Positions 1 through 43,139 of a stretch of DNA of 64,000 bases are shown here, piece after piece; position 1 is the first letter of the stretch; the number at the start of each line of letters is the position of its first letter. The notes under the pieces are model-generated. The model saw nothing but the letters and a program-made list of their open reading frames with translations, was not told the origin of the DNA and ran no database searches. Both the position numbers and the translations under genes were made by a program. The DNA is from Minisyncoccia bacterium (GTDB lineage Bacteria; Patescibacteriota; Minisyncoccia; UBA6257; JAAZHW01): assembly GCA_049720475.1 (NCBI GenBank), contig JBNASH010000033.1, forward strand, positions 3,784 to 67,783, written 5' to 3'.

Positions 1-1015
1 TGAGCATATTTAAAATAGAATACAAAGTAGTTGTTTTACCAGAGCCAGTCGGACCAGTTACCAAAATCATTCCGTAAGTTTTTTTAATACTCTCTTCAAT
101 TAATTTGGCAGTATCATCAAGCATTCCTAATTCTCTTAAACTCATTGGTTTGGCGGTGGCACGCAATAAACGCATTTCTACTTTCTCGCCATAAAAAGTT
201 GGCATAATGGACACACGAATATCCATTGCCTCCCCTAACGCTTCATAACGCAAACGACCATCTTGCGGCTTTCGATGTTCATCAATTTTTAAACCAGCTA
301 ATAATTTAATTCTTGCCACTATTGCTGGGTGAACTTCTTTTGGAATTCGCATCATTTCATGTAATACGCCATCAATGCGAAAGCGTACCAAAACCGCATC
401 TTTTAAAACTTCAATATGAATATCTGATGCATTTAAAGAAATGGCGTAGGCCAAAATACCATCAACAATATTAATAATTGGCAATTCTTCCGCCACTTCT
501 TTTTCGCCTACCATCTTCAACCGCGCCGTGGCTTTAATATTTTCTTCAATTAATTGTCTGAAGTCTTCAACAACTTCTTTGCCATAAAGCGAATAAACAT
601 AATTTAAATCTTTGTCAGTGGTAAGAAAAATTTTAATGGGCGCGTTGAGATATTTCTCTAAAAAATTAATTGTTTCCAAATCGCCCGGATCTTCCATCGC
701 CACATAAAAAACACCATTTTTATCCTGATCAAAAACTACCGCCCGCCGCATTCGAGCAATTTCCTCAGGAATTTTCGACAAAAGTGATTTTTTAATCAAG
801 CGGCCGCGCAATTTAATGACGGGCATCCTGAAATAATCCGCATAAAGTTGCAAAACATAATCCTCACTAATAAATCCGCGGGAAATTAAAATATCAATAA
901 TATCTTGGCCAGCTCTTTTACTTTCTTCAATGATTGTCTGAAAAACATCAGCCGGCACCAAACCACTATCCACCAAAAGTTCTTTTATTTTCTCAATTGG
1001 TAAACGCAAGGCCAT
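1..1015 (-). CDS. pilB: Type IV pilus / T2SS assembly ATPase (PilB/GspE family), N-terminal ~338 codons; the rest lies beyond the window start
   Basis: Absent from the ORF track because the window edge truncates it. Minus-strand translation from ATG 1015..1013 reads MALRLPIEKIKELLVDSGL... and ends in Walker A VTGPTGSGKTTTLYSILNML at nt 60..2. Confidence 0.85.
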   Translation of the reverse strand, partial: MALRLPIEKIKELLVDSGLVPADVFQTIIEESKRAGQDIIDILISRGFISEDYVLQLYADYFRMPVIKLRGRLIKKSLLSKIPEEIARMRRAVVFDQDKNGVFYVAMEDPGDLETINFLEKYLNAPIKIFLTTDKDLNYVYSLYGKEVVEDFRQLIEENIKATARLKMVGEKEVAEELPIINIVDGILAYAISLNASDIHIEVLKDAVLVRFRIDGVLHEMMRIPKEVHPAIVARIKLLAGLKIDEHRKPQDGRLRYEALGEAMDIRVSIMPTFYGEKVEMRLLRATAKPMSLRELGMLDDTAKLIEESIKKTYGMILVTGPTGSGKTTTLYSILNML

Positions 1016-1020
1016 AATTT

Positions 1021-1629
1021 TTAAAACCTGATGCTATTAATAAAATTGTTTATCCACTCAATGGGCAAATTGACTTTTTGCAAAAAGAAAACAACAATCG
1101 CCAATGGCAGCCATAAATAATAAAGGGGCAGGCGTTGATTAAACTGAATTTTTTTAAAAGCCAGCTGAACTAAATAAAGAATAATGGCAATGATTAAAAT
1201 TAAGAAAATATAAACGAGCCACATCGGATGCCCTAAAAAGATTATAGCATAAAATAACATCCATGGCTCTTCTTTTTCAAAAAAACGCTCGCCAGCCAAA
1301 CGATTTAAGATATTGGCTAAAAAGAAAAATAACAAGCCCACCAAAATAGGAAAAATCGCAGGCAAAAGAAAACGGTAATCAATATAGTGCAAAAAGAATT
1401 GAGATAATTTCTGATAGGGAGGAAGCAAATAAACAGCAATTTCGGAATTTTTAAATATTAAAAACTGCCCAATTACCTTAATGGTTAATTCAGCAATTTT
1501 CAAAATTAAAATTAAAATGACAGCAGGTTTGATTAACTGCTGGATTTTTTTAAACCCAATAATCAAACCTGCTGTAAGAACGAAATAAACAAAAGGCAGC
1601 TGATTTATAAGTCCATTTAAAAATTGCAT
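1021..1629 (-). CDS. Polytopic membrane protein of unknown function, between pilin and pilB
   Basis: 202-aa ORF with about 6 hydrophobic segments, 5 nt upstream of the pilB start. No GxGD prepilin-peptidase motif seen, so function is left open. Confidence 0.5.
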   Translation of the reverse strand: MQFLNGLINQLPFVYFVLTAGLIIGFKKIQQLIKPAVILILILKIAELTIKVIGQFLIFKNSEIAVYLLPPYQKLSQFFLHYIDYRFLLPAIFPILVGLLFFFLANILNRLAGERFFEKEEPWMLFYAIIFLGHPMWLVYIFLILIIAIILYLVQLAFKKIQFNQRLPLYYLWLPLAIVVFFLQKVNLPIEWINNFINSIRF

Positions 1630-1663
1630 AAAAAATTAATATCTGATAGTTAGAATAAAATGC

Positions 1664-3570: not shown

Positions 3571-5095
<1,525 letters not shown>

Positions 5096-5208
5096 AAAAA
5101 ATTTGATCTAACCCCATCCGATTATTATCGAATGGGACTAATACAACTCAAAGGACGACACGAAACAATGAAGAAAAAATTTATTTTTTGTTATTAATGT
5201 GCTAAAAA

Positions 5209-5237
5209 CGAAAATGATAAATTTATTATCATTTTCG
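5209..5237 (-). terminator. 12-bp hairpin plus U-run between rpsI and the 16S (r-protein operon terminator or rRNA leader hairpin)
   Basis: CGAAAATGATAA-ATTTA-TTATCATTTTCG, followed on the minus strand by TTTTTAGCACATTAATAACAA (weakly boxA-like). Confidence 0.5.
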
Positions 5238-5245
5238 ATAGATTT

Positions 5246-5273
5246 ATTTTATTCTTAATTTTTCTGATGTCAA
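5246..5273 (-). promoter_or_regulatory. Sigma70-like promoter TTGACA-16-TAAAAT
   Basis: Minus-strand TTGACA (5273..5268), 16-nt spacer, TAAAAT (5251..5246). It sits right after the rpsI stop and upstream of the 16S leader. Confidence 0.45.
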
Positions 5274-5281
5274 GAATAAAA

Positions 5282-5788
5282 TTAACGCTTAGACCATTGA
5301 GGAGCGCGGCGCGCTTTCTTTAATCCGTACTTCTTTCTTTCAACCATTCTTGCATCGCGAGTAAGAAATCCTACTCGACGCAATCGTTTCTTAAAATCTG
5401 GATTGAAAGCAACCATCGCTCTGGCAATTCCCATTCGCACAGCCTCCGCTTGAGCAGATAACCCTCCTCCTCTCACTATAGCCGTTAAACCAAATTTACC
5501 AGGACATTTCATTTTTTCAAACGGGGCTTCAATCATTGCCTGCAATTTTTTAAAGGGAAAATAAACTTTATAATCTTTTCCATTAATCAAAATTTCTTTA
5601 TTCCGGGTATAAAGTCGAACAATAGCAGTGGCTGTTTTTCTTGAGCCAACGCCTTCATAATAAACTTTCCCTTTGCGTCCTCTTTTTTCTTCTTTAGTTT
5701 CTTCCTCTTCAGAAGTTAAAACTTCGGGATTTTTTTCTTCCGATAATTTATTTTCTTTTTCTTCTGTAGTAATTTTTTTCCTAGGCAT
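5282..5788 (-). CDS. rpsI: 30S ribosomal protein S9 with a ~40-aa acidic/basic N-terminal extension
   Basis: YYEGVGSRKTATAIVRL...GGGLSAQAEAVRMGIARAM...RDARMVERKKYGLKKARRAPQWSKR. Confidence 0.95.
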   Translation of the reverse strand: MPRKKITTEEKENKLSEEKNPEVLTSEEEETKEEKRGRKGKVYYEGVGSRKTATAIVRLYTRNKEILINGKDYKVYFPFKKLQAMIEAPFEKMKCPGKFGLTAIVRGGGLSAQAEAVRMGIARAMVAFNPDFKKRLRRVGFLTRDARMVERKKYGLKKARRAPQWSKR

Positions 5789-6125
5789 ACATCTTTAAAT
5801 TTTTAATTCTTTTTGACCGCAAACTATTTTTAGGCAACATTCCTAAAACAGCTCTTTTTAAAACCTCCGTGGGATTCTTCTCAAAAACTTCCCTTAACTT
5901 TTTTTCTTTTAAATGACCCAGATACCCTGTATGATGTCTGTAAACTTTCTGATAAAATTTCTTTCCCGTAAATTTCATTTTTGAAACATTTTCGACGATG
6001 ACTTTAACATTTGCCACTTTGTTAGGCGCATAATCAGGATTATCTTTGCCTTGCAAAAGAACGGCTATTTTTGAAGCCAAACGTCCTAATGGTTGATTGG
6101 TAGCGTCAATTTTATATTCTCTCAT
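5781..6125 (-). CDS. rplM: 50S ribosomal protein L13 (short form)
   Basis: IDATNQPLGRLASKIAVLLQGK...YRHHTGYLGHLKE...AVLGMLPKN. Overlaps rpsI by 8 nt. Confidence 0.9.
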   Translation of the reverse strand: MREYKIDATNQPLGRLASKIAVLLQGKDNPDYAPNKVANVKVIVENVSKMKFTGKKFYQKVYRHHTGYLGHLKEKKLREVFEKNPTEVLKRAVLGMLPKNSLRSKRIKNLKMYA

Positions 6126-6492: not shown

Positions 6493-7281
6493 TTATTTTT
6501 TAGTTGCTTTAGTTTTTTTAGTTTTTTTGGTAGTTGCCTTCTCTTTCTCTTTTTCTTTTATTTCTTCTTTCGTCGCTTTTGTTGTTTCCTCAGGCACTTG
6601 AATATCGGCAACGATTTTAAAATGATCGACCAAAATATCAGCGGCTTGTTTTAGAGCCACACGTGGCAAAATGCTTCCATCGGTTTCAATATAAATTCTT
6701 AAACGGTTATAATCGGTTCTTTCTCCAACGCGCATATTTTCAACTTCGTAGTTCACTTTTTTAACGGGAGTAAAAATTGCATCTAAATTAATTGTTCCGA
6801 TTGGCAATTTTTCTTTCTGACGTGTTTCCGCCGGCGAATAACCAACACCTTCTTCAACGGTTAAAACCATTTCCAATTCTGATTTTTTATCTGTTAAAGT
6901 GGCAATATGTGTTTCGGGATTGATAATTTCAACATTTGAATTTTTGGCAATATCTCGAGCTGTTACCTCTCTTTCTCCTTTGGCAGATAAAGTTAAAGTA
7001 TGAGGGCCGGGGCTATAAACTTTTACTCTGATTTTTTTCAAATTAAGAATAATCTGAATAACATCTTCCAAAACACCTTCAATAGTAGAAAACTCATGAT
7101 GAACGCCTTTGATTTTAACGCTAGTAATGGCTGCACCTTTTAAAGAGGATAAAAGAACCCGACGTAAGGCATTCCCCAAAGTTAAACCATAACCAGTGTA
7201 TAAATTTTCAATTTCAAAAACGCCTTCGGTTTCTGTCTCTTTTATAATTTTTGGTTTTGTGGGTAAAATTAACCCTAACAT
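6493..7281 (-). CDS. rpoA: DNA-directed RNA polymerase alpha subunit, N-terminal domain only, followed by a Lys/Thr/Glu-rich tail
   Basis: GYGLTLGNALRRVLLSSLKGAAITSVKIKGVHHEFSTIEGV is the alpha NTD signature. The ORF ends at 262 aa with EEIKEKEKEKATTKKTKKTKATKK. Confidence 0.9.
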   Translation of the reverse strand: MLGLILPTKPKIIKETETEGVFEIENLYTGYGLTLGNALRRVLLSSLKGAAITSVKIKGVHHEFSTIEGVLEDVIQIILNLKKIRVKVYSPGPHTLTLSAKGEREVTARDIAKNSNVEIINPETHIATLTDKKSELEMVLTVEEGVGYSPAETRQKEKLPIGTINLDAIFTPVKKVNYEVENMRVGERTDYNRLRIYIETDGSILPRVALKQAADILVDHFKIVADIQVPEETTKATKEEIKEKEKEKATTKKTKKTKATKK

Positions 7282-7292
7282 ATTTTTATAAA

Positions 7293-7919
7293 TTAACGTG
7301 AATAAAATTCGACGATTTGTCTAAAATCAAATGGCGGCAATTGTTTTGCCAAGCTTGGCTCGGCAATAATTTTAGCTTCTAGTTTTTCTGGATCAAAACT
7401 TAGATAATCTGGTAGTTGAACTTTTTTAAGTTTTTTATCTAAATTCACAAAAGGAGCCTTGTTCTTACTTTCCGGCCGAATAGAAATTATATCACCCTTT
7501 TTCAATTCATAAGCGGGAACATCGATTTTCTTGCCATTAACCAAAATATGACCGTGACTTACCAGCTGGCGCGCGCCTCGTCGAGAAGAAGAAAAACCCA
7601 AACGATAAATAACATTGTCCAATCGCAATTCTAATTTTTTAAAGAAAATGTCACTGGTTGATTGGGGACTTTTACTTGCTTCTTTAAAGTATTTTTTCAT
7701 TTGAGCTTCATTAACACCGTAAGTAAGCTTAACCTTTCTTACCTCATTCAATTGTTTTCCATATTCAGAAGTGGCTTTTGTGACTTTTTTGCGATGCATA
7801 CCGGGCGCATAAGGCTTTCTAATTAAAGCGCATTTTATAGAATAGCAACGATCCCCTTTCAAAAAAAGTTTTTCCCCAACTCTACGACATTTTCGACATT
7901 TAGCATCTAAAATTGCCAT
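7293..7919 (-). CDS. rpsD: 30S ribosomal protein S4
   Basis: Zinc-ribbon type N-terminus MAILDAKCRKCRRVGEKLFLKGDRC, and S4 domain RLDNVIYRLGFSSSRRGARQLVSHGHILVNG. I chose the ATG at 7919; the track ORF runs on to 7988 inside rpsK. Confidence 0.9.
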   Translation of the reverse strand: MAILDAKCRKCRRVGEKLFLKGDRCYSIKCALIRKPYAPGMHRKKVTKATSEYGKQLNEVRKVKLTYGVNEAQMKKYFKEASKSPQSTSDIFFKKLELRLDNVIYRLGFSSSRRGARQLVSHGHILVNGKKIDVPAYELKKGDIISIRPESKNKAPFVNLDKKLKKVQLPDYLSFDPEKLEAKIIAEPSLAKQLPPFDFRQIVEFYSR

Positions 7920-7923
7920 AATT

Positions 7924-8382
7924 TTATACTCTCCGTGGTTTTGGCGGTCGACATCCGCCGTGTGGAACCGGAGTAATATCTTTAACACTAACGACGTTTA
8001 AATTTTGAGCAATAAAACTTCTTAAAGCGGCTTCCCTACCAGCACCTAATCCTTTGATATAAACATGAAACTCTGGAATAATTAATTTCTTGATTTTTTG
8101 AACAATCGATTCGGCAACTTTGGTAGCCGCAAAGGCAGTTGCTTTTTTGGGTCCTTTAAATTGTAAATGTCCAGCCGATGACCAAGCCAAAGTATTTCCC
8201 AAATGATCAGTCACGGTAATAATAATGTTATTATAAGAAGAGGAAATATAAATATTAGCAAATGGATAACTTCCTTTTTTGCCAACTTCTTTTGATTCAA
8301 CTTTTTTAAGCGCTGATTCCAGCGTCTCTTTTTCTTTTAAAACTTCATTTTCATCTTGAACAGCTACTCTTTTCTTCCCCAT
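7924..8382 (-). CDS. rpsK: 30S ribosomal protein S11 with an N-terminal extension
   Basis: ANIYISSSYNNIIITVTDHLGNTLAWSSAG...KGLGAGREAALR...ITPVPHGGCRPPKPRRV. Confidence 0.95.
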   Translation of the reverse strand: MGKKRVAVQDENEVLKEKETLESALKKVESKEVGKKGSYPFANIYISSSYNNIIITVTDHLGNTLAWSSAGHLQFKGPKKATAFAATKVAESIVQKIKKLIIPEFHVYIKGLGAGREAALRSFIAQNLNVVSVKDITPVPHGGCRPPKPRRV

Positions 8383-8383
8383 A

Positions 8384-8770
8384 TTATTTAAGTTCTAATT
8401 TTCTGCGACCGCTACCGACTGTCCGACGAACATTACCACGAATGGTTCGCGAATTAGTTTTTGTTCGTTGACCGCGCACCGGTAATTTTCTTAAGTGTCT
8501 TATACCACGATAACAATTAATATCTTTTAATCGGCGGATATTAGATTGAATCTCTCGTCTTAAATCACCTTCAATTTTATAATTCGTTTCAATTATATTT
8601 TGCAAACGATTAATTTCTTCGGTTGTTAAATCTTTGGCTTTTTTGTTTTGATTAATATTAGCCATATTTAAAACTTTTCTAGCCAAAGATTGCCCGATTC
8701 CATAAATATAGGATAGGCTAACAAAAATTGGTTTATTATCAGGGATATTTACATTACAAATACGTACCAT
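8384..8770 (-). CDS. rpsM: 30S ribosomal protein S13
   Basis: MVRICNVNIPDNKPIFVSLSYIYGIGQSLARKVL...CYRGIRHLRKLPVRGQRTKTNSRT. Confidence 0.95.
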   Translation of the reverse strand: MVRICNVNIPDNKPIFVSLSYIYGIGQSLARKVLNMANINQNKKAKDLTTEEINRLQNIIETNYKIEGDLRREIQSNIRRLKDINCYRGIRHLRKLPVRGQRTKTNSRTIRGNVRRTVGSGRRKLELK

Positions 8771-38407: not shown

Positions 38408-39033
38408 AAAATTATTACTTTCCGGCCATTAATTTTAATTCGGCCCTCAGCAAAAACTTTAATTCCCTCGCATAAAATTTCTTCTTCTTTTTGATGAATT
38501 TTTTCTTCTAAACTTTCTATGGTTTCATCATCTTTAATATCCACCGCGCGTTGAAAAATAATTGGACCTGTATCAACGCCCTCATCAACAAAATGTAAAG
38601 TACAACCTGTAATTTTTGCACCATAATCGAGAGCTTGCTTTGGTGCATCAAGCCCTGGAAAAGCCGGGCATAAAGAAGGATGAATATTGATTACAGCATT
38701 TGGAAAATTTTTTAGGAAGGTTGGAGAAAGTATCAAATCCCAACCAGCCAAAACAACTAAATTAATTTTTCTTTCTTTTAAAATATTCGCCAATTCTTTA
38801 TCAAAAGATTCTCTATTTTTACCTTGATTCTTCCAATCGCTCAAACGAAAATAAAAAGCTTCGATACCTTGCTGTCTGGCCCATTCAACACCTGGTGACT
38901 CTTTTTTGTGGGAAATAACAACAGCTAATTCAACTAGAGGATGATTTTGGCAACATTCATAAATAGCCTTTAAACGGCCGCCTCTTCCTATTAAAGCCGC
39001 AACGCGACATCGATTGGTTGAAGAAAAAATCAT
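38404..39033 (-). CDS. purN: Phosphoribosylglycinamide formyltransferase-like (PurN/formyl_trans_N)
   Basis: LVVLAGWDLIL...INIHPSLCPAFPG...GCTLHFVDEGVDTGPII. Confidence 0.75.
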   Translation of the reverse strand: MIFSSTNRCRVAALIGRGGRLKAIYECCQNHPLVELAVVISHKKESPGVEWARQQGIEAFYFRLSDWKNQGKNRESFDKELANILKERKINLVVLAGWDLILSPTFLKNFPNAVINIHPSLCPAFPGLDAPKQALDYGAKITGCTLHFVDEGVDTGPIIFQRAVDIKDDETIESLEEKIHQKEEEILCEGIKVFAEGRIKINGRKVIIL

Positions 39034-39042
39034 AATTTCGAG

Positions 39043-39594
39043 TTATTTTTGATTTTCTAATTCTTTGCTTTGTTCTGCCTGCTTTTTTAAATAATCTCCC
39101 ACCAATTTAGCTTCAGTTTTTCTAAAAGCAGTTTCCGCTCCTGCTTCCATCATTTCTTCATTTTTAGCTTCCGAACTGCTAAAACCAATTATTTTTATTC
39201 CATTCGCTAATTTTTTTATTTGATTAACAACAAGAGGGCCGCTATTCAATTCTTCATCATCTAAATCCAAATAACCGTCAACTAAAATTGTACCTGGCAA
39301 TTTTTCTTTATTTTCTATTCTTCTTTTTAACTCCTCAATAGCATCTTTAGCCTTATCAAAATGATTAAATTGATAATCAGATCCTTTACTTTCAAATTCC
39401 CACAATCTTAAACAAGCATCAACAATATTTTTATCATCATCAATAATCCAAATTTCTTTCTGGTTTAAATCCAGCAATTCTCTTTTTTCTATTTTTTCAT
39501 TAATGTTTTGGGGTGGTTGATCGCTTTTGGAAGATGATTGGTCTGTTTTTTTAAATTTGTCTATTTTATCAATAAAGCCAAACATATTATTCAT
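39043..39594 (-). CDS. Receiver-like (REC) domain protein with a ~45-aa N-terminal extension
   Basis: IWIIDDDKNIV...TILVDGYL...IIGFSS...FRK resembles the CheY fold. No output domain. Confidence 0.5.
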   Translation of the reverse strand: MNNMFGFIDKIDKFKKTDQSSSKSDQPPQNINEKIEKRELLDLNQKEIWIIDDDKNIVDACLRLWEFESKGSDYQFNHFDKAKDAIEELKRRIENKEKLPGTILVDGYLDLDDEELNSGPLVVNQIKKLANGIKIIGFSSSEAKNEEMMEAGAETAFRKTEAKLVGDYLKKQAEQSKELENQK

Positions 39595-39654
39595 TATATC
39601 TTATAATCTAAAAATCTGCAATTGAGCGGTGTGTATTTGAAAAAATCCGAACTG

Positions 39655-39760
39655 ATTTTGTGACTGATTGGCTCGGCGGGCGGAATTCCCTCCGAATATC
39701 CCTCTTCCGCCTACCTCGCACTGAAGCGGAAGCGAAAAGGACGATCTCAAATTTTTATTT
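39655..39760. other. GC-rich structured spacer (candidate ncRNA or decayed tRNA-like remnant)
   Basis: GGCGGA...TCCGCC and CTTCCGC...GCGGAAG stems share the TCTTCCGCC segment, so they are mutually exclusive. The minus strand ends in ...CCGCCCGCCGAGCCA. It stands out from the AT-rich flanks. Confidence 0.3.
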
Positions 39761-39808
39761 AGCAGCAAATTCTTTGGTTATTCTTTTAAATATTTCTTCC
39801 AAGAATGT

Positions 39809-40012
39809 TTAAAATCTGCTTCTAAATCTATGTTTTGTTTTGGAATTTGAATAACTACTACAAACAAAATTATCGTCAAACTTAAATAATAAATATTTAA
39901 GTTTTCTGACCAAAATTTCCCAATCGCCCAAAAAGAAACCCATATAAACACACTCCAAATAACCGGCGCGATTAAAAATGTAGAAATCGGGATCTGATTT
40001 TTTAGTTTTCAT
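39809..40012 (-). CDS. Hypothetical protein (67 aa), last gene of the XRE-led operon
   Basis: Its ATG overlaps the stop of the upstream small ORF (ATGA). No motif recognised. Confidence 0.4.
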   Translation of the reverse strand: MKTKKSDPDFYIFNRAGYLECVYMGFFLGDWEILVRKLKYLLFKFDDNFVCSSYSNSKTKHRFRSRF

Positions 40013-40122
40013 TCGCGCTTTAATTTTTTCGCTCTGGACAAAGCTAAAAAAAGAAGGTAAATAATTTGGCTAAAAGCAAACATCCTAAAAAATAAACCAA
40101 ATATGAAAATTGCAATTCCCAT
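40009..40122 (-). CDS. Small hydrophobic protein (37 aa)
   Basis: Not in the track. Hand translation gives MGIAIFIFGLFFRMFAFSQIIYLLFLALSRAKKLKRE. Its start lies 1 nt after the upstream stop. Confidence 0.4.
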   Translation of the reverse strand: MGIAIFIFGLFFRMFAFSQIIYLLFLALSRAKKLKRE

Positions 40123-40123
40123 A

Positions 40124-40834
40124 TTAGTAGTTTAAATTATTTTTAATAATAACCTCATTTGGCAATTCGGTTTGACCTGCCATAGAGCGACAATCTACTG
40201 CTGAATGGCCTTTTAATAAATCAGTGATTGAATTATCTAATTTTTCTTTCTTATCCTTGTTTCGTAATTTGTGCACTACATATTCGTATAAAATCCCGAC
40301 CGTAAGCGGAAGCAAAATAATATCGGGTCCGGCAGACATATGAAAGATATGACCCAAGCCATTGCCACCGGAACGCTCAAAAACTAAAAAACTATATTTT
40401 GCCAACGAATAACGCGGTTCTTCATCTTCTGAAAAAGTTAGGGGTGGCATTGGCAAAAATCTATTATAGATTTTGAATAATCCAAGCGTTGCATCTTTTT
40501 CCATTTGATCTAAGGTTTGAAAAATGATCTCATACAACTTTGGTGTAATCTCATTAGATTTTGATTTTTCGATTTCGTTTAAAAGAAATTTCCTAACAAC
40601 CTCTATCTGTCTATCATCACAGATGAAAAAGTATCGGGCTAAAAATAAGATATAACCGGCGATCAATAAGTCATCAGGTAAAAATTGCTCTTTGTATTTT
40701 GTTTCAATTTTTACAAACGAGGGGCCATAATTAAAATGCCACTCTAAAACATTGTCCTTTCGTTGAGTAAATAAATTTGTCAACCACCTAATTGGGGCGA
40801 AAATAATTGAAAATATAAAACGGAATATTGCCAT
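40124..40834 (-). CDS. Hypothetical protein (236 aa) with a hydrophobic N-terminus
   Basis: Long ORF tightly coupled to its neighbours (1-nt gaps). No family recognised. Confidence 0.5.
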   Translation of the reverse strand: MAIFRFIFSIIFAPIRWLTNLFTQRKDNVLEWHFNYGPSFVKIETKYKEQFLPDDLLIAGYILFLARYFFICDDRQIEVVRKFLLNEIEKSKSNEITPKLYEIIFQTLDQMEKDATLGLFKIYNRFLPMPPLTFSEDEEPRYSLAKYSFLVFERSGGNGLGHIFHMSAGPDIILLPLTVGILYEYVVHKLRNKDKKEKLDNSITDLLKGHSAVDCRSMAGQTELPNEVIIKNNLNY

Positions 40835-40835
40835 A

Positions 40836-41198
40836 TTATTCTTTGTTCGTTGTTAATCTATTACCACTGAAAGCACCAAAAACGACAGGAATATATAACA
40901 GCGTCATGAAATAAGCAAAATTTGCGGCTCTTTGTTCGGTGGTTGGCTCAAAACCATCATCAGCATATTGTTCGCAACCGCCATATACTGGATCAGATTG
41001 TTCTATGCAAGAGGGATTTCCCAAAGTGAAACTCGCGAATAAAGCAATCCCAGCACACCACAAAAGTCCTTTCCATAAAACTTTTTTAAGTTTTCCGTTT
41101 TTTGAGTTGTCGCGTGCTGTCTTCCAAGCAAACAACGCAACACCTGCGATTAACAGGTAGCCAAGTGCTCTAAAAATTTCATGAAAAATCAATTCCAT
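40836..41198 (-). CDS. Hypothetical 3-TM membrane protein (120 aa)
   Basis: Three hydrophobic helices and a Cys-containing loop (NPSCIEQSDPVYGGCEQY). Confidence 0.5.
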   Translation of the reverse strand: MELIFHEIFRALGYLLIAGVALFAWKTARDNSKNGKLKKVLWKGLLWCAGIALFASFTLGNPSCIEQSDPVYGGCEQYADDGFEPTTEQRAANFAYFMTLLYIPVVFGAFSGNRLTTNKE

Positions 41199-41199
41199 A

Positions 41200-41397
41200 T
41201 TATTTCAATAAATCCTCAACCGAAACGCCTAATGCTTTGGCAATTTTGGCCATAACTTGGACGCTCGGTTTTTTAACAAAATCGCCCTCTATTTTGGTAA
41301 GGGTAGTGTGTTTTACGCCAGACTTTTTCACCAAATCGTCCTGCGTTAAATCAAGTTTGTTGCGGTATTTTTTGATATTTTCACCTATTGTTGCCAT
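41200..41397 (-). CDS. XRE-family helix-turn-helix transcriptional regulator (65 aa)
   Basis: IKKYRNKLDLTQDDLVKKSGVKHTTLTKIE...MAKIAKALGVSVEDLL. A TGATATCA palindrome lies at 41411..41418 upstream. Confidence 0.85.
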   Translation of the reverse strand: MATIGENIKKYRNKLDLTQDDLVKKSGVKHTTLTKIEGDFVKKPSVQVMAKIAKALGVSVEDLLK

Positions 41398-41590
41398 AGT
41401 TTCAAAACTTTGATATCATTAAACCATAAAAGGTGATTTCAAATATATAATATTAAAAAATTTCAATTCAGTAAAGAAAGCCCGCTTCTGGCGTCCTCGC
41501 TTTGCGGGACAAAGACAAAAAATTCAATTTTACGTTTAAAATCGGCTGGCGAGCCCTTGCAGAGGGCGAGCCAGCAACCTTTTTTTTGAT

Positions 41591-41682
41591 TGGCGGTGGG
41601 GGCGAGACTCGAACTCGCATGTCCGCTCATCACGGACCCCGCTTTTCGAGAGCGGTGCCTTACCAATTCGGCGCACCCCACC
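41591..41682 (-). tRNA. tRNA-Ser (anticodon CGA), class II long variable arm, CCA encoded
   Basis: GGTGGGG/CCCCACC acceptor, anticodon loop CTCGAAA, variable arm GGTCCGTGATGAGCGGACAT, T-arm GCGAG-TTCGAGT-CTCGC, and G-CCA. Confidence 0.9.
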
Positions 41683-41699
41683 AATTTTTAAATTTCTTT

Positions 41700-43139
41700 T
41701 TATTCTAATTCGAAGGTTTGGCCGCAATCCGGTATCTCAGTAACAACACCAAAATTATCTTTTACTTTTTGAGCCAATTCTTTGGATGCTTCCTCTTCGC
41801 CATGTACAACAAATAATTTTTTAAGTCGGAATCTTAATTCTTTTATCCAATCCAAAAGCATTCTTTGATCAGCATGGGCTGAATACCCCGTAATTTGCAT
41901 TACCTTACAATTAACATTAATCAATTCATTATGAATTTCAACTTGTTTTGCTCCTTCTAAAATTTTCCTTCCTAAGGAATTTTTTGCCTGGTAAGAAACA
42001 ATTAATAAAATGCTGTGGGGGTCAGAAAGATATCTTTTTTCATGATGCAAAATTCGGCCGCCTTCCGACGATCCAGAACCAGCCAAAATCACTTTGGGTG
42101 GCGGCACAGCATTAATTGCTTTTGATTCTTCTGTTGTTAAAGTAAAAGTTAGACCCGGAAACTCAAATAATCCGCGGCCATTGCCCACAAATTTAAAAGC
42201 CTCAATTTTGATATATTCGAGATATTTTTGATAAACAGCAGTTAATTTCCCGGCTAAAGGACTATCCATAAAAATCGGTACCAAAGGAACGCGATGGTGA
42301 ACAACTAACTCATTTAACTCCACTAAAATTTCTTGTGTTCTTTCTAACGCTAAAACAGGAATCATCAACACTCCTCTATTTCGTATCACTTCTTCAATAG
42401 CATCTTCTAATAAATCTTTTCTAATCTCAGCATCTTCGTGAATTTTATTGCCATAAGTTGATTCGACTATGCAGTAATCTGCTTCCTCGCTAATAACATC
42501 AGTATCAGGCAATAAAATATTAAATGAATTTCCTAAATCTCCAGAAAATAAAATTTTTACTTCCTTTTCGGGTTTTTTTATTTTTAATAAAACAATTGCT
42601 GACCCCAAAATATGACCGGCATTATAAAAAATAAAAGAAATGCGTGGCGAAATTTTAACCTCTTGATAGTATTTTTGAGGACTAAACAGTTTTAAAGTTT
42701 CTTGCATATCATTCTCGTCATACAACAAAGGCAATCCTTGTTTTTCTGCTGCTTCTTTCATTAAATTAAAAGCATCTTCCCACAAAATAGAACAACAATC
42801 TATTGTTGGCGGCGTAGCATAAATTTTTCCTCGAAAACCATTTTTATACAACAAAGGAGCTAAACCGCTATGATCAATATGGGCATGAGTTAAGATAACG
42901 GCCTTTAATTCTTTTGGGTCAAAAGGTAATGGTTCATAATTTCTTTCGTTTCTTATATCGCGATAAATTCCGCAGTCAATTAAAACTTTTTCATTTTTAT
43001 ATTCAACTAAAAAGCGGCTTCCTTCTACTTCTTTCGCAGCGCCATAAAAAGAAATTTTAATTTTGTTATTGGTTTTTTTGCGATTAATTTGGCTATTTTT
43101 AGAATTTTTCTTTGGTTGTTTATTAATCTTCTTTGGCAC
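41700..43139 (-). CDS. MBL-fold beta-CASP ribonuclease (RNase J/CPSF-like)
   Basis: LIDCG..., ILTHAHIDHSG, STYG, and a C-terminal ...GYSAHAD...VHGE. Confidence 0.8.
   Translation of the reverse strand: MPKKINKQPKKNSKNSQINRKKTNNKIKISFYGAAKEVEGSRFLVEYKNEKVLIDCGIYRDIRNERNYEPLPFDPKELKAVILTHAHIDHSGLAPLLYKNGFRGKIYATPPTIDCCSILWEDAFNLMKEAAEKQGLPLLYDENDMQETLKLFSPQKYYQEVKISPRISFIFYNAGHILGSAIVLLKIKKPEKEVKILFSGDLGNSFNILLPDTDVISEEADYCIVESTYGNKIHEDAEIRKDLLEDAIEEVIRNRGVLMIPVLALERTQEILVELNELVVHHRVPLVPIFMDSPLAGKLTAVYQKYLEYIKIEAFKFVGNGRGLFEFPGLTFTLTTEESKAINAVPPPKVILAGSGSSEGGRILHHEKRYLSDPHSILLIVSYQAKNSLGRKILEGAKQVEIHNELINVNCKVMQITGYSAHADQRMLLDWIKELRFRLKKLFVVHGEEEASKELAQKVKDNFGVVTEIPDCGQTFELE

Follow-up and report, generated by a model that had tools for sequence, protein, structure and literature searches.

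A block of small genes led by an XRE-type regulator lies directly downstream of tRNA-Ser(CGA) in a Minisyncoccia bacterium (contig JBNASH010000033.1, assembly GCA_049720475.1), which raises the question of whether it is native to the chromosome or was inserted there, and what its products do. We addressed this question in a 64,000-nt stretch of the contig (positions 3,784 to 67,783; hereafter the window, to whose coordinates positions refer unless a locus is named). The original prediction, made from the letters alone, had described a five-gene operon of unknown function bracketed by two GC-rich structured spacers, and had likened the layout to phage-exclusion, abortive-infection and toxin modules and to integrated-element remnants. 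The comparisons below indicate that window 39626-41592 is probably the recombinase-less remnant of a small integrative element of Parcubacteria (Minisyncoccia). Its operon has four genes, encoding the regulator and proteins that we call p120, p236 and p115.

Insertion at the tRNA-Ser(CGA) gene

Searches with RR183, the gene downstream of the block, recovered two relatives (loci L091 and L092). L091 is 98-99% identical in nucleotide sequence to both flanks of the block (L091 375-1374 matches window 39631-38632 at 98.2%), and RR183 comes immediately after its tRNA-Ser(CGA) gene. In L092, at 81% identity, synteny is complete (PolX, NUDIX, beta-CASP, tRNA-Ser(CGA), RR183, PurN, YkuD/S11), and here too RR183 directly follows the tRNA, with the block absent. 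Since nothing separates tRNA-Ser(CGA) from RR183 in either relative, the window carries an insertion, which blastn breakpoints put at 1,967 bp between two copies of the hexamer CACCGC. The breakpoints fall at window 41589 and 39631 and overlap by 11 nt in L091. The empty site attB of L091, cccCACCGCtcaattgcag, also contains the CACCGC core, and the corresponding junctions in the window are attL, cccCACCGCcaatcaaaaaaaagg, and attR, acaCACCGCtcaattgcag. A 6-bp repeat is by itself weak evidence; it is the coincidence of the breakpoints that carries weight. Alignment with these near-identical and syntenic relatives shows the block as a precise insertion relative to them. The same module also occurs at a different tRNA, tRNA-Ser(GGA) in the complete genome AP024682, with 90% nucleotide identity over 1.9 kb.

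The opposite reading, a native chromosomal operon that was deleted in L091 and L092 with no mobile insertion involved, would fit the GC content of the block (0.352, close to 0.338 for the window). However, two independent relatives, one of them at 81% identity, lack the block exactly at the same 6-bp repeat, the module adjoins serine recombinases at tRNA-Ser(GGA) in AP024682 and at further tRNAs in other loci, and recombinase fragments flank it in the window (see below). We regard a native operon as highly improbable and largely refuted. The proposed comparison of presence and absence at this tRNA locus thus favors an integrated-element remnant, a reading strongly supported by the empty sites, the flanking 6-bp repeat, the recombinase 3'-end remnants and the intact recombinase in relatives.

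Two further observations concern the genes on either side. Where the site is occupied, tRNA-Ser(CGA) has a CCA end that is encoded by the element (CACCGCCA, window 41591-41598), while the empty sites have no encoded CCA (CACCGCTC and CACCGCCC; L091 373-385 and L092 5955-5967). The 183-aa product of RR183 (39043-39594, minus strand) is an orphan protein resembling receiver domains (Response_reg E=7e-5, short of the Pfam cut-off), with only 4 homologues in 5.8 billion clusters. Since the insertion ends 31 nt ahead of its start codon, the upstream control region of RR183 has been replaced by element sequence.

Recombinase fragments and proposed attachment sites

Both spacers are indeed GC-rich (0.49 against 0.338 window-wide, the 96th percentile of 110-nt windows), but they are not detectably structured, with folding z-scores of -1.65 and -0.78 that are indistinguishable from shuffles. 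We dropped a structured-RNA reading of the spacers and the promoter because they fold no better than shuffled sequence; an Rfam scan of 38500-42500 returned the tRNA as its sole match. Within the window both spacers are unique, and by blastn both match the closest complete genome, AP024682 ('Candidatus Parcubacteria bacterium KatS3mg098'; loci L001 and L007), which carries the operon as XRE65-p120-p236-p115. The 20-kb L007 locus has no housekeeping genes in common with the window.

The downstream spacer is 84.6% identical to L001 7119-7272, where an intact recombinase gene that runs towards the operon ends, and window 39615-39704 (plus strand) aligns by tblastn to residues 494-525 of that recombinase (75% identity, E=1e-8). 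These alignments make it a remnant of such a convergent large serine recombinase gene, comprising the final ~31 codons with the 3' flank. The upstream spacer shares 93.5% identity with L001 3640-3716, which follows tRNA-Ser(GGA) there, and 92.5% with L001 5185->5067, an inverted copy upstream of a degraded recombinase. Its plus strand reads KDKKFNFTFKIGWRALAEGEPATFF, resembling the C-terminal part of the degraded L001 recombinase open reading frame (ORF), and the same comparison identifies this spacer as an antisense copy of a recombinase 3' end joined to the segment that precedes the recombinase ribosome-binding site in L001. The intact L001 recombinase (7151-8743; 530 aa; PHROG 95 'integrase', 4.7e-85) lies beside a module 94-96% identical to that of the window, and intact recombinase genes adjoin the same module in L001, L021, L025, L030 and L038. 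Related recombinases carry the Pfam domains Resolvase, Recombinase and Zn_ribbon_recom, which identify them as serine recombinases. The earlier remark that no integrase is present therefore holds for genes, since no recombinase ORF was found in the 64-kb window, but not for sequence, as two recombinase 3'-end fragments are there.

In AP024682 itself, L001 3545-10632 (AP024682.1 ~353,900-361,000) contains tandem elements at tRNA-Ser(GGA), in the order degraded serine recombinase, XRE-p120-p236-p115, intact recombinase and a second XRE gene (73 aa), the last accompanied by a 324-aa protein and an N6-methyltransferase/S24-LexA-like pair. This tRNA site looks like a hotspot that accumulates elements.

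The arms in these relatives suggest where the phage-type attachment site (attP) of the element lies. The two arm types meet in L001 at gcaCACCGCcaatattcaa, a position within the recombinase ORF (...EYWRCAFEK..., codons W499-R500 of 530). L021 is a complete element at tRNA-Ser(GGA), and its recombinase ORF passes after ...CDSWR into sequence antisense to the tRNA. Upstream of this gene stands a second copy of its 3' end, inverted and intact, which reads ...DSWRCFLDEVRTFFEQNPNSEF / ...CDSWRCFLDEVRTFFEQNPNSEF, each ending in a stop. We infer that the attP core (reverse complement TGGCGG) would lie within the recombinase 3' coding end, where it would mimic the 3' end of tRNA-Ser, in a region of about 50 bp around gcaCACCGCcaatatt. 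With attP inside the 3' coding end, integration would place one arm next to the tRNA and strand the final ~31 codons on the far side of the cargo, which matches the arrangement in the window. A search for 12-nt repeats of the tRNA 3' end downstream of elements was uninformative because the core is just ~6 bp.

The loss of the recombinase can be approached in the same way. The motif CAGAAGCGGGCTTT(T)CT occurs twice in L001, before the recombinase ribosome-binding site and before the XRE promoter, and the window has a single fused copy of it at the spacer-promoter junction (Table 1). The recombinase body was probably deleted later, between the two direct copies of the motif; alternatively, a form already lacking the recombinase moved in trans. 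The same recombinase-less junction is found in L033 and L019, and L031 retains just the first ~60 recombinase codons. We prefer deletion, and note that both the attachment model and the deletion model come from sequence comparison alone. The recombinase gene varies in orientation relative to the XRE module, lying one way in L021 and the opposite way in L025, L031 and L057, and ahead of each recombinase gene stands its own 3' end once more, inverted and with an intact att-like core (L001 5067-5294 and 8878-9039; L021 about 5040-5270). The inverted copies, together with the two orientations, suggest inversion, which would switch the recombinase between its full C-terminal tail and a tail read from the tRNA antisense.

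Genes of the operon and their distribution

Table 1. Features of the inserted block and its borders in the window.
Feature	Position	Strand	Basis
tRNA-Ser(CGA), integration target	41591..41682	-	ARAGORN; Rfam tRNA 52 bits; last bases CACCG+CCA form attL
Left core copy CACCGC, attL crossover region	41593..41598	-	breakpoints versus L091
Upstream GC-rich spacer 'a1+a2'	41477..41590	-	blastn versus L001
Junction motif CAGAAGCGGGCTTTCT, proposed recombinase deletion site	41475..41490	-	sequence comparison; deletion inferred
XRE promoter/operator region, GC 0.19	41398..41476	-	95.7% identical to L001 5344-5437
XRE/Cro-C1-type helix-turn-helix (HTH) regulator, 65 aa	41200..41397	-	Pfam HTH_3 1e-13
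p120, small membrane protein, accessory 'slot' gene, 120 aa	40836..41198	-	ORF
p236, 236 aa, uncharacterised family	40124..40834	-	ORF and homologues
p115 gene, 3-transmembrane protein, 114 codons, in-frame TGA at 40009-40011	39778..40122	-	tblastn, residues 1-114 in one frame
Downstream GC-rich spacer 'elemB'	39632..39756	+	blastn and tblastn versus L001
Right core copy CACCGC, attR; chromosomal flank resumes beyond	39626..39631	-	breakpoints versus L091

The tRNA gene directly upstream and the ORFs of 65, 120 and 236 aa were all found as predicted, on the minus strand (Table 1). Comparison with relatives reduces the five predicted genes to four, because the 37-aa ORF (40009-40122) and a 57-aa ORF (39778-39951) form one interrupted frame of 114 codons. 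All three gene junctions read TAATATGG (stop, one base, start; TAATATG), and these 1-nt gaps, which had been noted correctly, fit translational coupling of the downstream genes; the 'ATGA overlap' reported with them is a coincidence of a nonsense codon in p115. XRE, p120 and p236 are real genes under purifying selection, with ratios of nonsynonymous to synonymous divergence (dN/dS) against L001 of 0.19, 0.27 and 0.15, respectively (range 0.15-0.27).

The regulator matches PF01381 (HTH_3) at 51.5 bits against a cut-off of 23, and HTH, CapH and control-protein models of PADLOC at 1e-9 to 1e-11. Two palindromes lie upstream of its gene, TAATATTA at 41448-41455 and TGATATCA at 41411-41418, the latter already seen in the original prediction, 37 bp apart from centre to centre. 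The inverted half-sites are fixed in position, and their sequence co-varies with the XRE clade: TTGATATCAT ... ATGATATCAA in L001 and L042, TTGGTAGTAT ... ATACTACCAA in the L021 group and TTGATAGTAT ... ATGCTATCAA in the L012 group. The distal site overlaps the likely -10 element. Where the window has TAATATTA, L001 (5382-5389) and L042 have TGATATCA, two symmetric substitutions that preserve the palindrome and give a better -10 match (TATTAT). Promoter-like hexamers were detected in this region, and a promoter/terminator scan gave counts no higher than in shuffles. The covariation of half-sites with the XRE variant supports autoregulation as the most likely role: the 65-aa protein would control its own operon by binding a pair of inverted half-sites (TTGRTANYAT ... 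ATRNTAYCAA) overlapping the promoter.

The last gene of the operon is broken. Window 40122-39778 is orthologous to a 115-aa gene of AP024682 that is a single frame there, and the window frame is interrupted by TGA at codon 38. Three relatives have GGA or GGT (Gly) at this codon, so a single G-to-T change accounts for the stop, and Gly38 is nearly invariant in a 30-member alignment of the p115 family. The predicted 37-aa peptide, by this comparison, is the N-terminal stump of p115 rather than a gene of its own, and the predicted 67-aa protein (39809-40012) is an artefact read from a different, non-conserved frame. TGA terminates 8 of 55 long ORFs in the window and is therefore a genuine stop here, and recoding of TGA (genetic code 25) was rejected on the same count. 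The window allele is also altered at positions conserved in the family (P23L, W28L and P29S in the same alignment, P29 being invariant). Its identity to the L001 protein is 75%, which we considered as a sign of decay and rejected: synonymous divergence (dS) is 0.91 with dN/dS 0.14 (Nei-Gojobori), compared with dS 0.07-0.18 for XRE, p120 and p236. These values mark a divergent allele long under constraint, and the evidence of decay is confined to the nonsense codon and the altered invariant residues. On this sequence evidence the window p115 is a divergent mosaic allele that was recently inactivated. Given the nonsense codon, the module in the window is probably dead, if p115 is required for its function.

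Intact p115 is predicted to have three strongly hydrophobic helices and a conserved charged tail, and almost all of its 111 homologues are exactly 115 aa long. DUF5976 matches 11 of the 30 aligned members weakly (best E 0.0016, below threshold). The p236 protein is modeled as a hydrophobic N-terminal helix followed by a duplicated beta-hairpin-plus-helices domain (AlphaFold2 predicted local distance difference test, pLDDT, 88; predicted template modeling score, pTM, 0.85). The hydrophobic N-terminus noted earlier is thus present but only moderately hydrophobic, as no 19-residue Kyte-Doolittle window reaches a mean of >=1.6. A word-indexed search recovered 94 homologues of p236, and a full hidden Markov model scan 122 clusters at 50% identity among 1.84 billion representatives, which makes p236 the founding member of an uncharacterised family. 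Distant members are without the hydrophobic N-terminus and Cys72, and some are fused to TPR, FtsK-gamma, zinc ribbon or GYF domains. Because of these fusions and the poor conservation of the N-terminus and Cys72, the core of p236 looks soluble; it is probably non-enzymatic, and the protein is probably cytoplasmic or tethered to the membrane. C-terminal TPR repeats are fused to p236 in two proteins (P0099 and P0100), and L061 6001-7399 encodes p236 followed by a separate membrane TPR protein, which may mean that some lineages pair p236 with a TPR protein. The p120 protein, 96% identical to its L001 counterpart and described before as having three transmembrane segments, has two to three marginal ones and a Cys-containing loop.

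The family and fold checks proposed earlier placed neither p236 nor p120 in a known family, and the p236 fold has no match in the PDB or BFVD structure libraries; a PDB sequence profile search also gave no match. Pfam, PADLOC, PHROGs and NCBIfam gave nothing above threshold for p120, p236, p115 or the 227-aa protein described below, IMG/VR held no relative, and PADLOC-DB v2 yielded no effector match among these proteins, the regulator matching generic HTH models only.

To follow the module across genomes we scanned genomes and metagenomes and compiled 84 related loci, free of redundancy. Most are short metagenome contigs, and bin labels such as 'Deltaproteobacteria' or 'Gammaproteobacteria' may reflect mis-binning. 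The recurrent order is tRNA, serine recombinase, XRE, variable slot, p236, p115 and recombinase 3' remnant, the tRNA being mostly tRNA-Ser with anticodon GGA, GCT, CGA or TGA. In the p236 clade at least 70% identical to the window, XRE lies upstream in 23 of 34 loci and p115 downstream in 27 of 34; XRE abuts p236 in 16 of the 25 loci where both were detected, and of the 24 loci that reach 3 kb, 13 have a recombinase. At 50-70% identity the figures fall to 1/18 for XRE and 3/19 for p115, and below 50% to 0/15 for both. The full gene set does not co-occur, since p120 is found in 2 of the 41 loci of the closest clade; co-occurrence of XRE, p236 and p115 holds within that clade but not outside it. 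These counts define XRE-p236-p115 as the conserved core of the element family, with p120 a rare extra.

Several loci of the closest clade have an unrelated gene for a 227-230-aa protein with no family match in the slot between XRE and p236 (L012 445-1128; L033 550-1233; L042 370-1134). A copy at L086 4160-4852 (minus strand) lies 1.1 kb from a 27%-identical p236 homologue. This protein may be a second recurrent partner of p236; a Rosetta-stone link between it and the N-terminal extensions of fused p236 proteins was sought by BLAST and profile and not found. A 6.3-kb contig, L029, carries two complete, convergent XRE-p236-p115 modules (390-1630, plus strand, and 4651-5891, minus strand). Outside the module, p115 occurs without p236 in contigs binned as Chloroflexi and Zixibacteria, in one case flanked by a GIY-YIG gene and dprA. 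Its identity is 60-97% between contigs assigned to the candidate phyla radiation (CPR), Chloroflexi and Zixibacteria (L093 3487-3864; L094 5001-5348; L095 1668-2015), an unusual conservation for a small membrane protein that suggests recent horizontal spread. Distant p236 genes have among their neighbours a DUF4238 ('Pers') protein, a HATPase_c and STAS-like pair, a membrane protein with TPR repeats, and serine recombinases, which faintly suggests that they lie in conflict islands.

Payload function and known systems

The lambda immunity region cI-rexA-rexB places a repressor, a non-membrane protein and then a small polytopic membrane protein in one operon. The payload here has a similar layout (XRE, a non-membrane protein of the ~240-280-aa class, a small polytopic membrane protein, all in an integrated element), and by this analogy we tentatively propose a repressor-linked exclusion or abortive-infection module, in which p236 would be a soluble sensor, p115 a small membrane effector and p120 an additional membrane protein in this copy. 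Neither p236 nor p115 resembles RexA, RexB or PADLOC models in sequence or fold. The fuller claim, of an element family whose serine integrase has its attachment site in its own 3' coding end and whose XRE-p236-p115 genes form a new two-component exclusion or abortive-infection system, is a little more doubtful still.

Two other roles tied to the element seem to us unlikely, and to a similar degree. The payload could be an addiction (toxin-antitoxin-like) module that stabilises the element, with XRE as antitoxin and repressor and p236 and/or p115 as toxin. XRE does lie within a few bases of p236 in the loci counted above, it has weak, sub-threshold similarity to the HTH models of HipB/Y4mF/PezA-type antitoxins, and three transmembrane helices with a charged tail would suit a membrane toxin. 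However, homologues of p236 (27-65% identity) and of p115 occur without an adjacent XRE (for p236, at 17 of 18 mid-clade loci and all 15 far-clade loci), a distribution that fits poorly with a toxin left unneutralised. Known toxin domains were not detected, and in the window p115 is broken while XRE is intact, the reverse of usual toxin-antitoxin decay and tolerated only if p115 is the toxin. Alternatively, p236 and/or p115 might serve the life cycle of the element, as a directionality factor, in replication or partition, or as a helper of DNA uptake or transfer. Directionality factors of serine integrases are diverse proteins with no common family, elements of the closest clade hold little beyond recombinase, XRE, p236 and p115, and one p236 member is fused to an FtsK-gamma DNA-binding domain. 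Against such a role, many p236 homologues stand in contexts without recombinase, XRE or tRNA, p115 is found alone in the Chloroflexi and Zixibacteria bins, and a hydrophobic N-terminus with a membrane partner is unusual for directionality factors.

We give still less credence to an ordinary host membrane function in envelope, transport or stress tolerance, outside genetic conflict. In its favor, small membrane proteins make up two or three of the products, the searches gave no signature of defence or toxins, and p115 is highly conserved between distant contigs; yet the distribution is patchy and element-borne, the slot gene varies, no transporter or enzyme motifs are present, and the distant neighbours (DUF4238, a candidate defence protein, the HATPase_c and STAS-like pair, serine recombinases) point elsewhere. 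Several facts also weigh against the combined picture of element and payload that we favor. The crossover core is just 6 bp. With no recombinase gene in the 64-kb window and no excised form observed, present-day mobility is unproven. The placement of attP inside the gene rests on few related loci (L001 and L021). Finally, some other lineages have p236 but no p115 and others p115 but no p236, so the two need not form one machine.

These conclusions bear on a group whose mobile elements are poorly described: the locus offers a clean case with both occupied and empty sites, and the att arms explain its odd GC-rich spacers. In the literature on CPR/Patescibacteria and serine recombinases we found no description of such elements, the library searched being incomplete. 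The payload defines two small uncharacterised families, p236, whose confidently predicted fold is unmatched in the libraries searched, and p115; both are candidates for conflict-related membrane functions in organisms not yet genetically manipulable.

Among known systems, XRE autoregulators of mobile elements (Cro/C1, restriction-modification C-proteins and CapH) share the HTH_3 domain and paired inverted promoter sites, whereas no partner protease or antirepressor of the ImmA/CapP type is encoded here. Type II toxin-antitoxin systems differ in that the present module has no recognisable toxin family and no obligate pairing of XRE with p236. Holins are small proteins with 2-4 transmembrane helices and a charged C-terminal tail, encoded beside a lysin; p115 has three such helices and a charged tail, with no lysin nearby and no holin family match, and it also occurs alone. 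The element itself belongs to the broad class of integrative elements and prophage remnants moved by large serine recombinases (phiC31/Bxb1-type, SCCmec Ccr and XisF): the related recombinases match PHROG 95 'integrase' and have Resolvase, Recombinase and Zn_ribbon_recom domains, and insertion is likewise precise, with a short shared core and an empty attB in relatives. Unlike those, the elements described here are about 2-4 kb, target the 3' end of tRNA-Ser and reside in Parcubacteria (CPR), their attP apparently lies inside the recombinase 3' coding end, and the window copy is without its recombinase. Very small size, a tRNA-Ser 3'-end target, an att core inside the recombinase gene and a CPR host are all unusual, and compact, tRNA-specific integrases may interest genome engineers.

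An attachment site inside the integrase gene recalls the SSV-type 'suicidal' integrases, in which the recombination site lies within the integrase gene and integration into a tRNA gene splits it (PMC8371274). Such self-disrupting recombinases have been described as exclusive to archaea and are tyrosine recombinases (PMC8371274). In our case the parallel of an att core inside the integrase ORF holds for the relatives only (L001 and L021), the enzyme is a bacterial serine recombinase, and only a C-terminal tail beyond the conserved domains is exchanged. If attP does lie within the gene, a feature described as archaea-exclusive (PMC8371274) would extend to bacterial serine integrases, and these elements would be a bacterial serine-recombinase counterpart of the archaeal SSV-type, in which the inverted end copy may allow a tail-swapping inversion.

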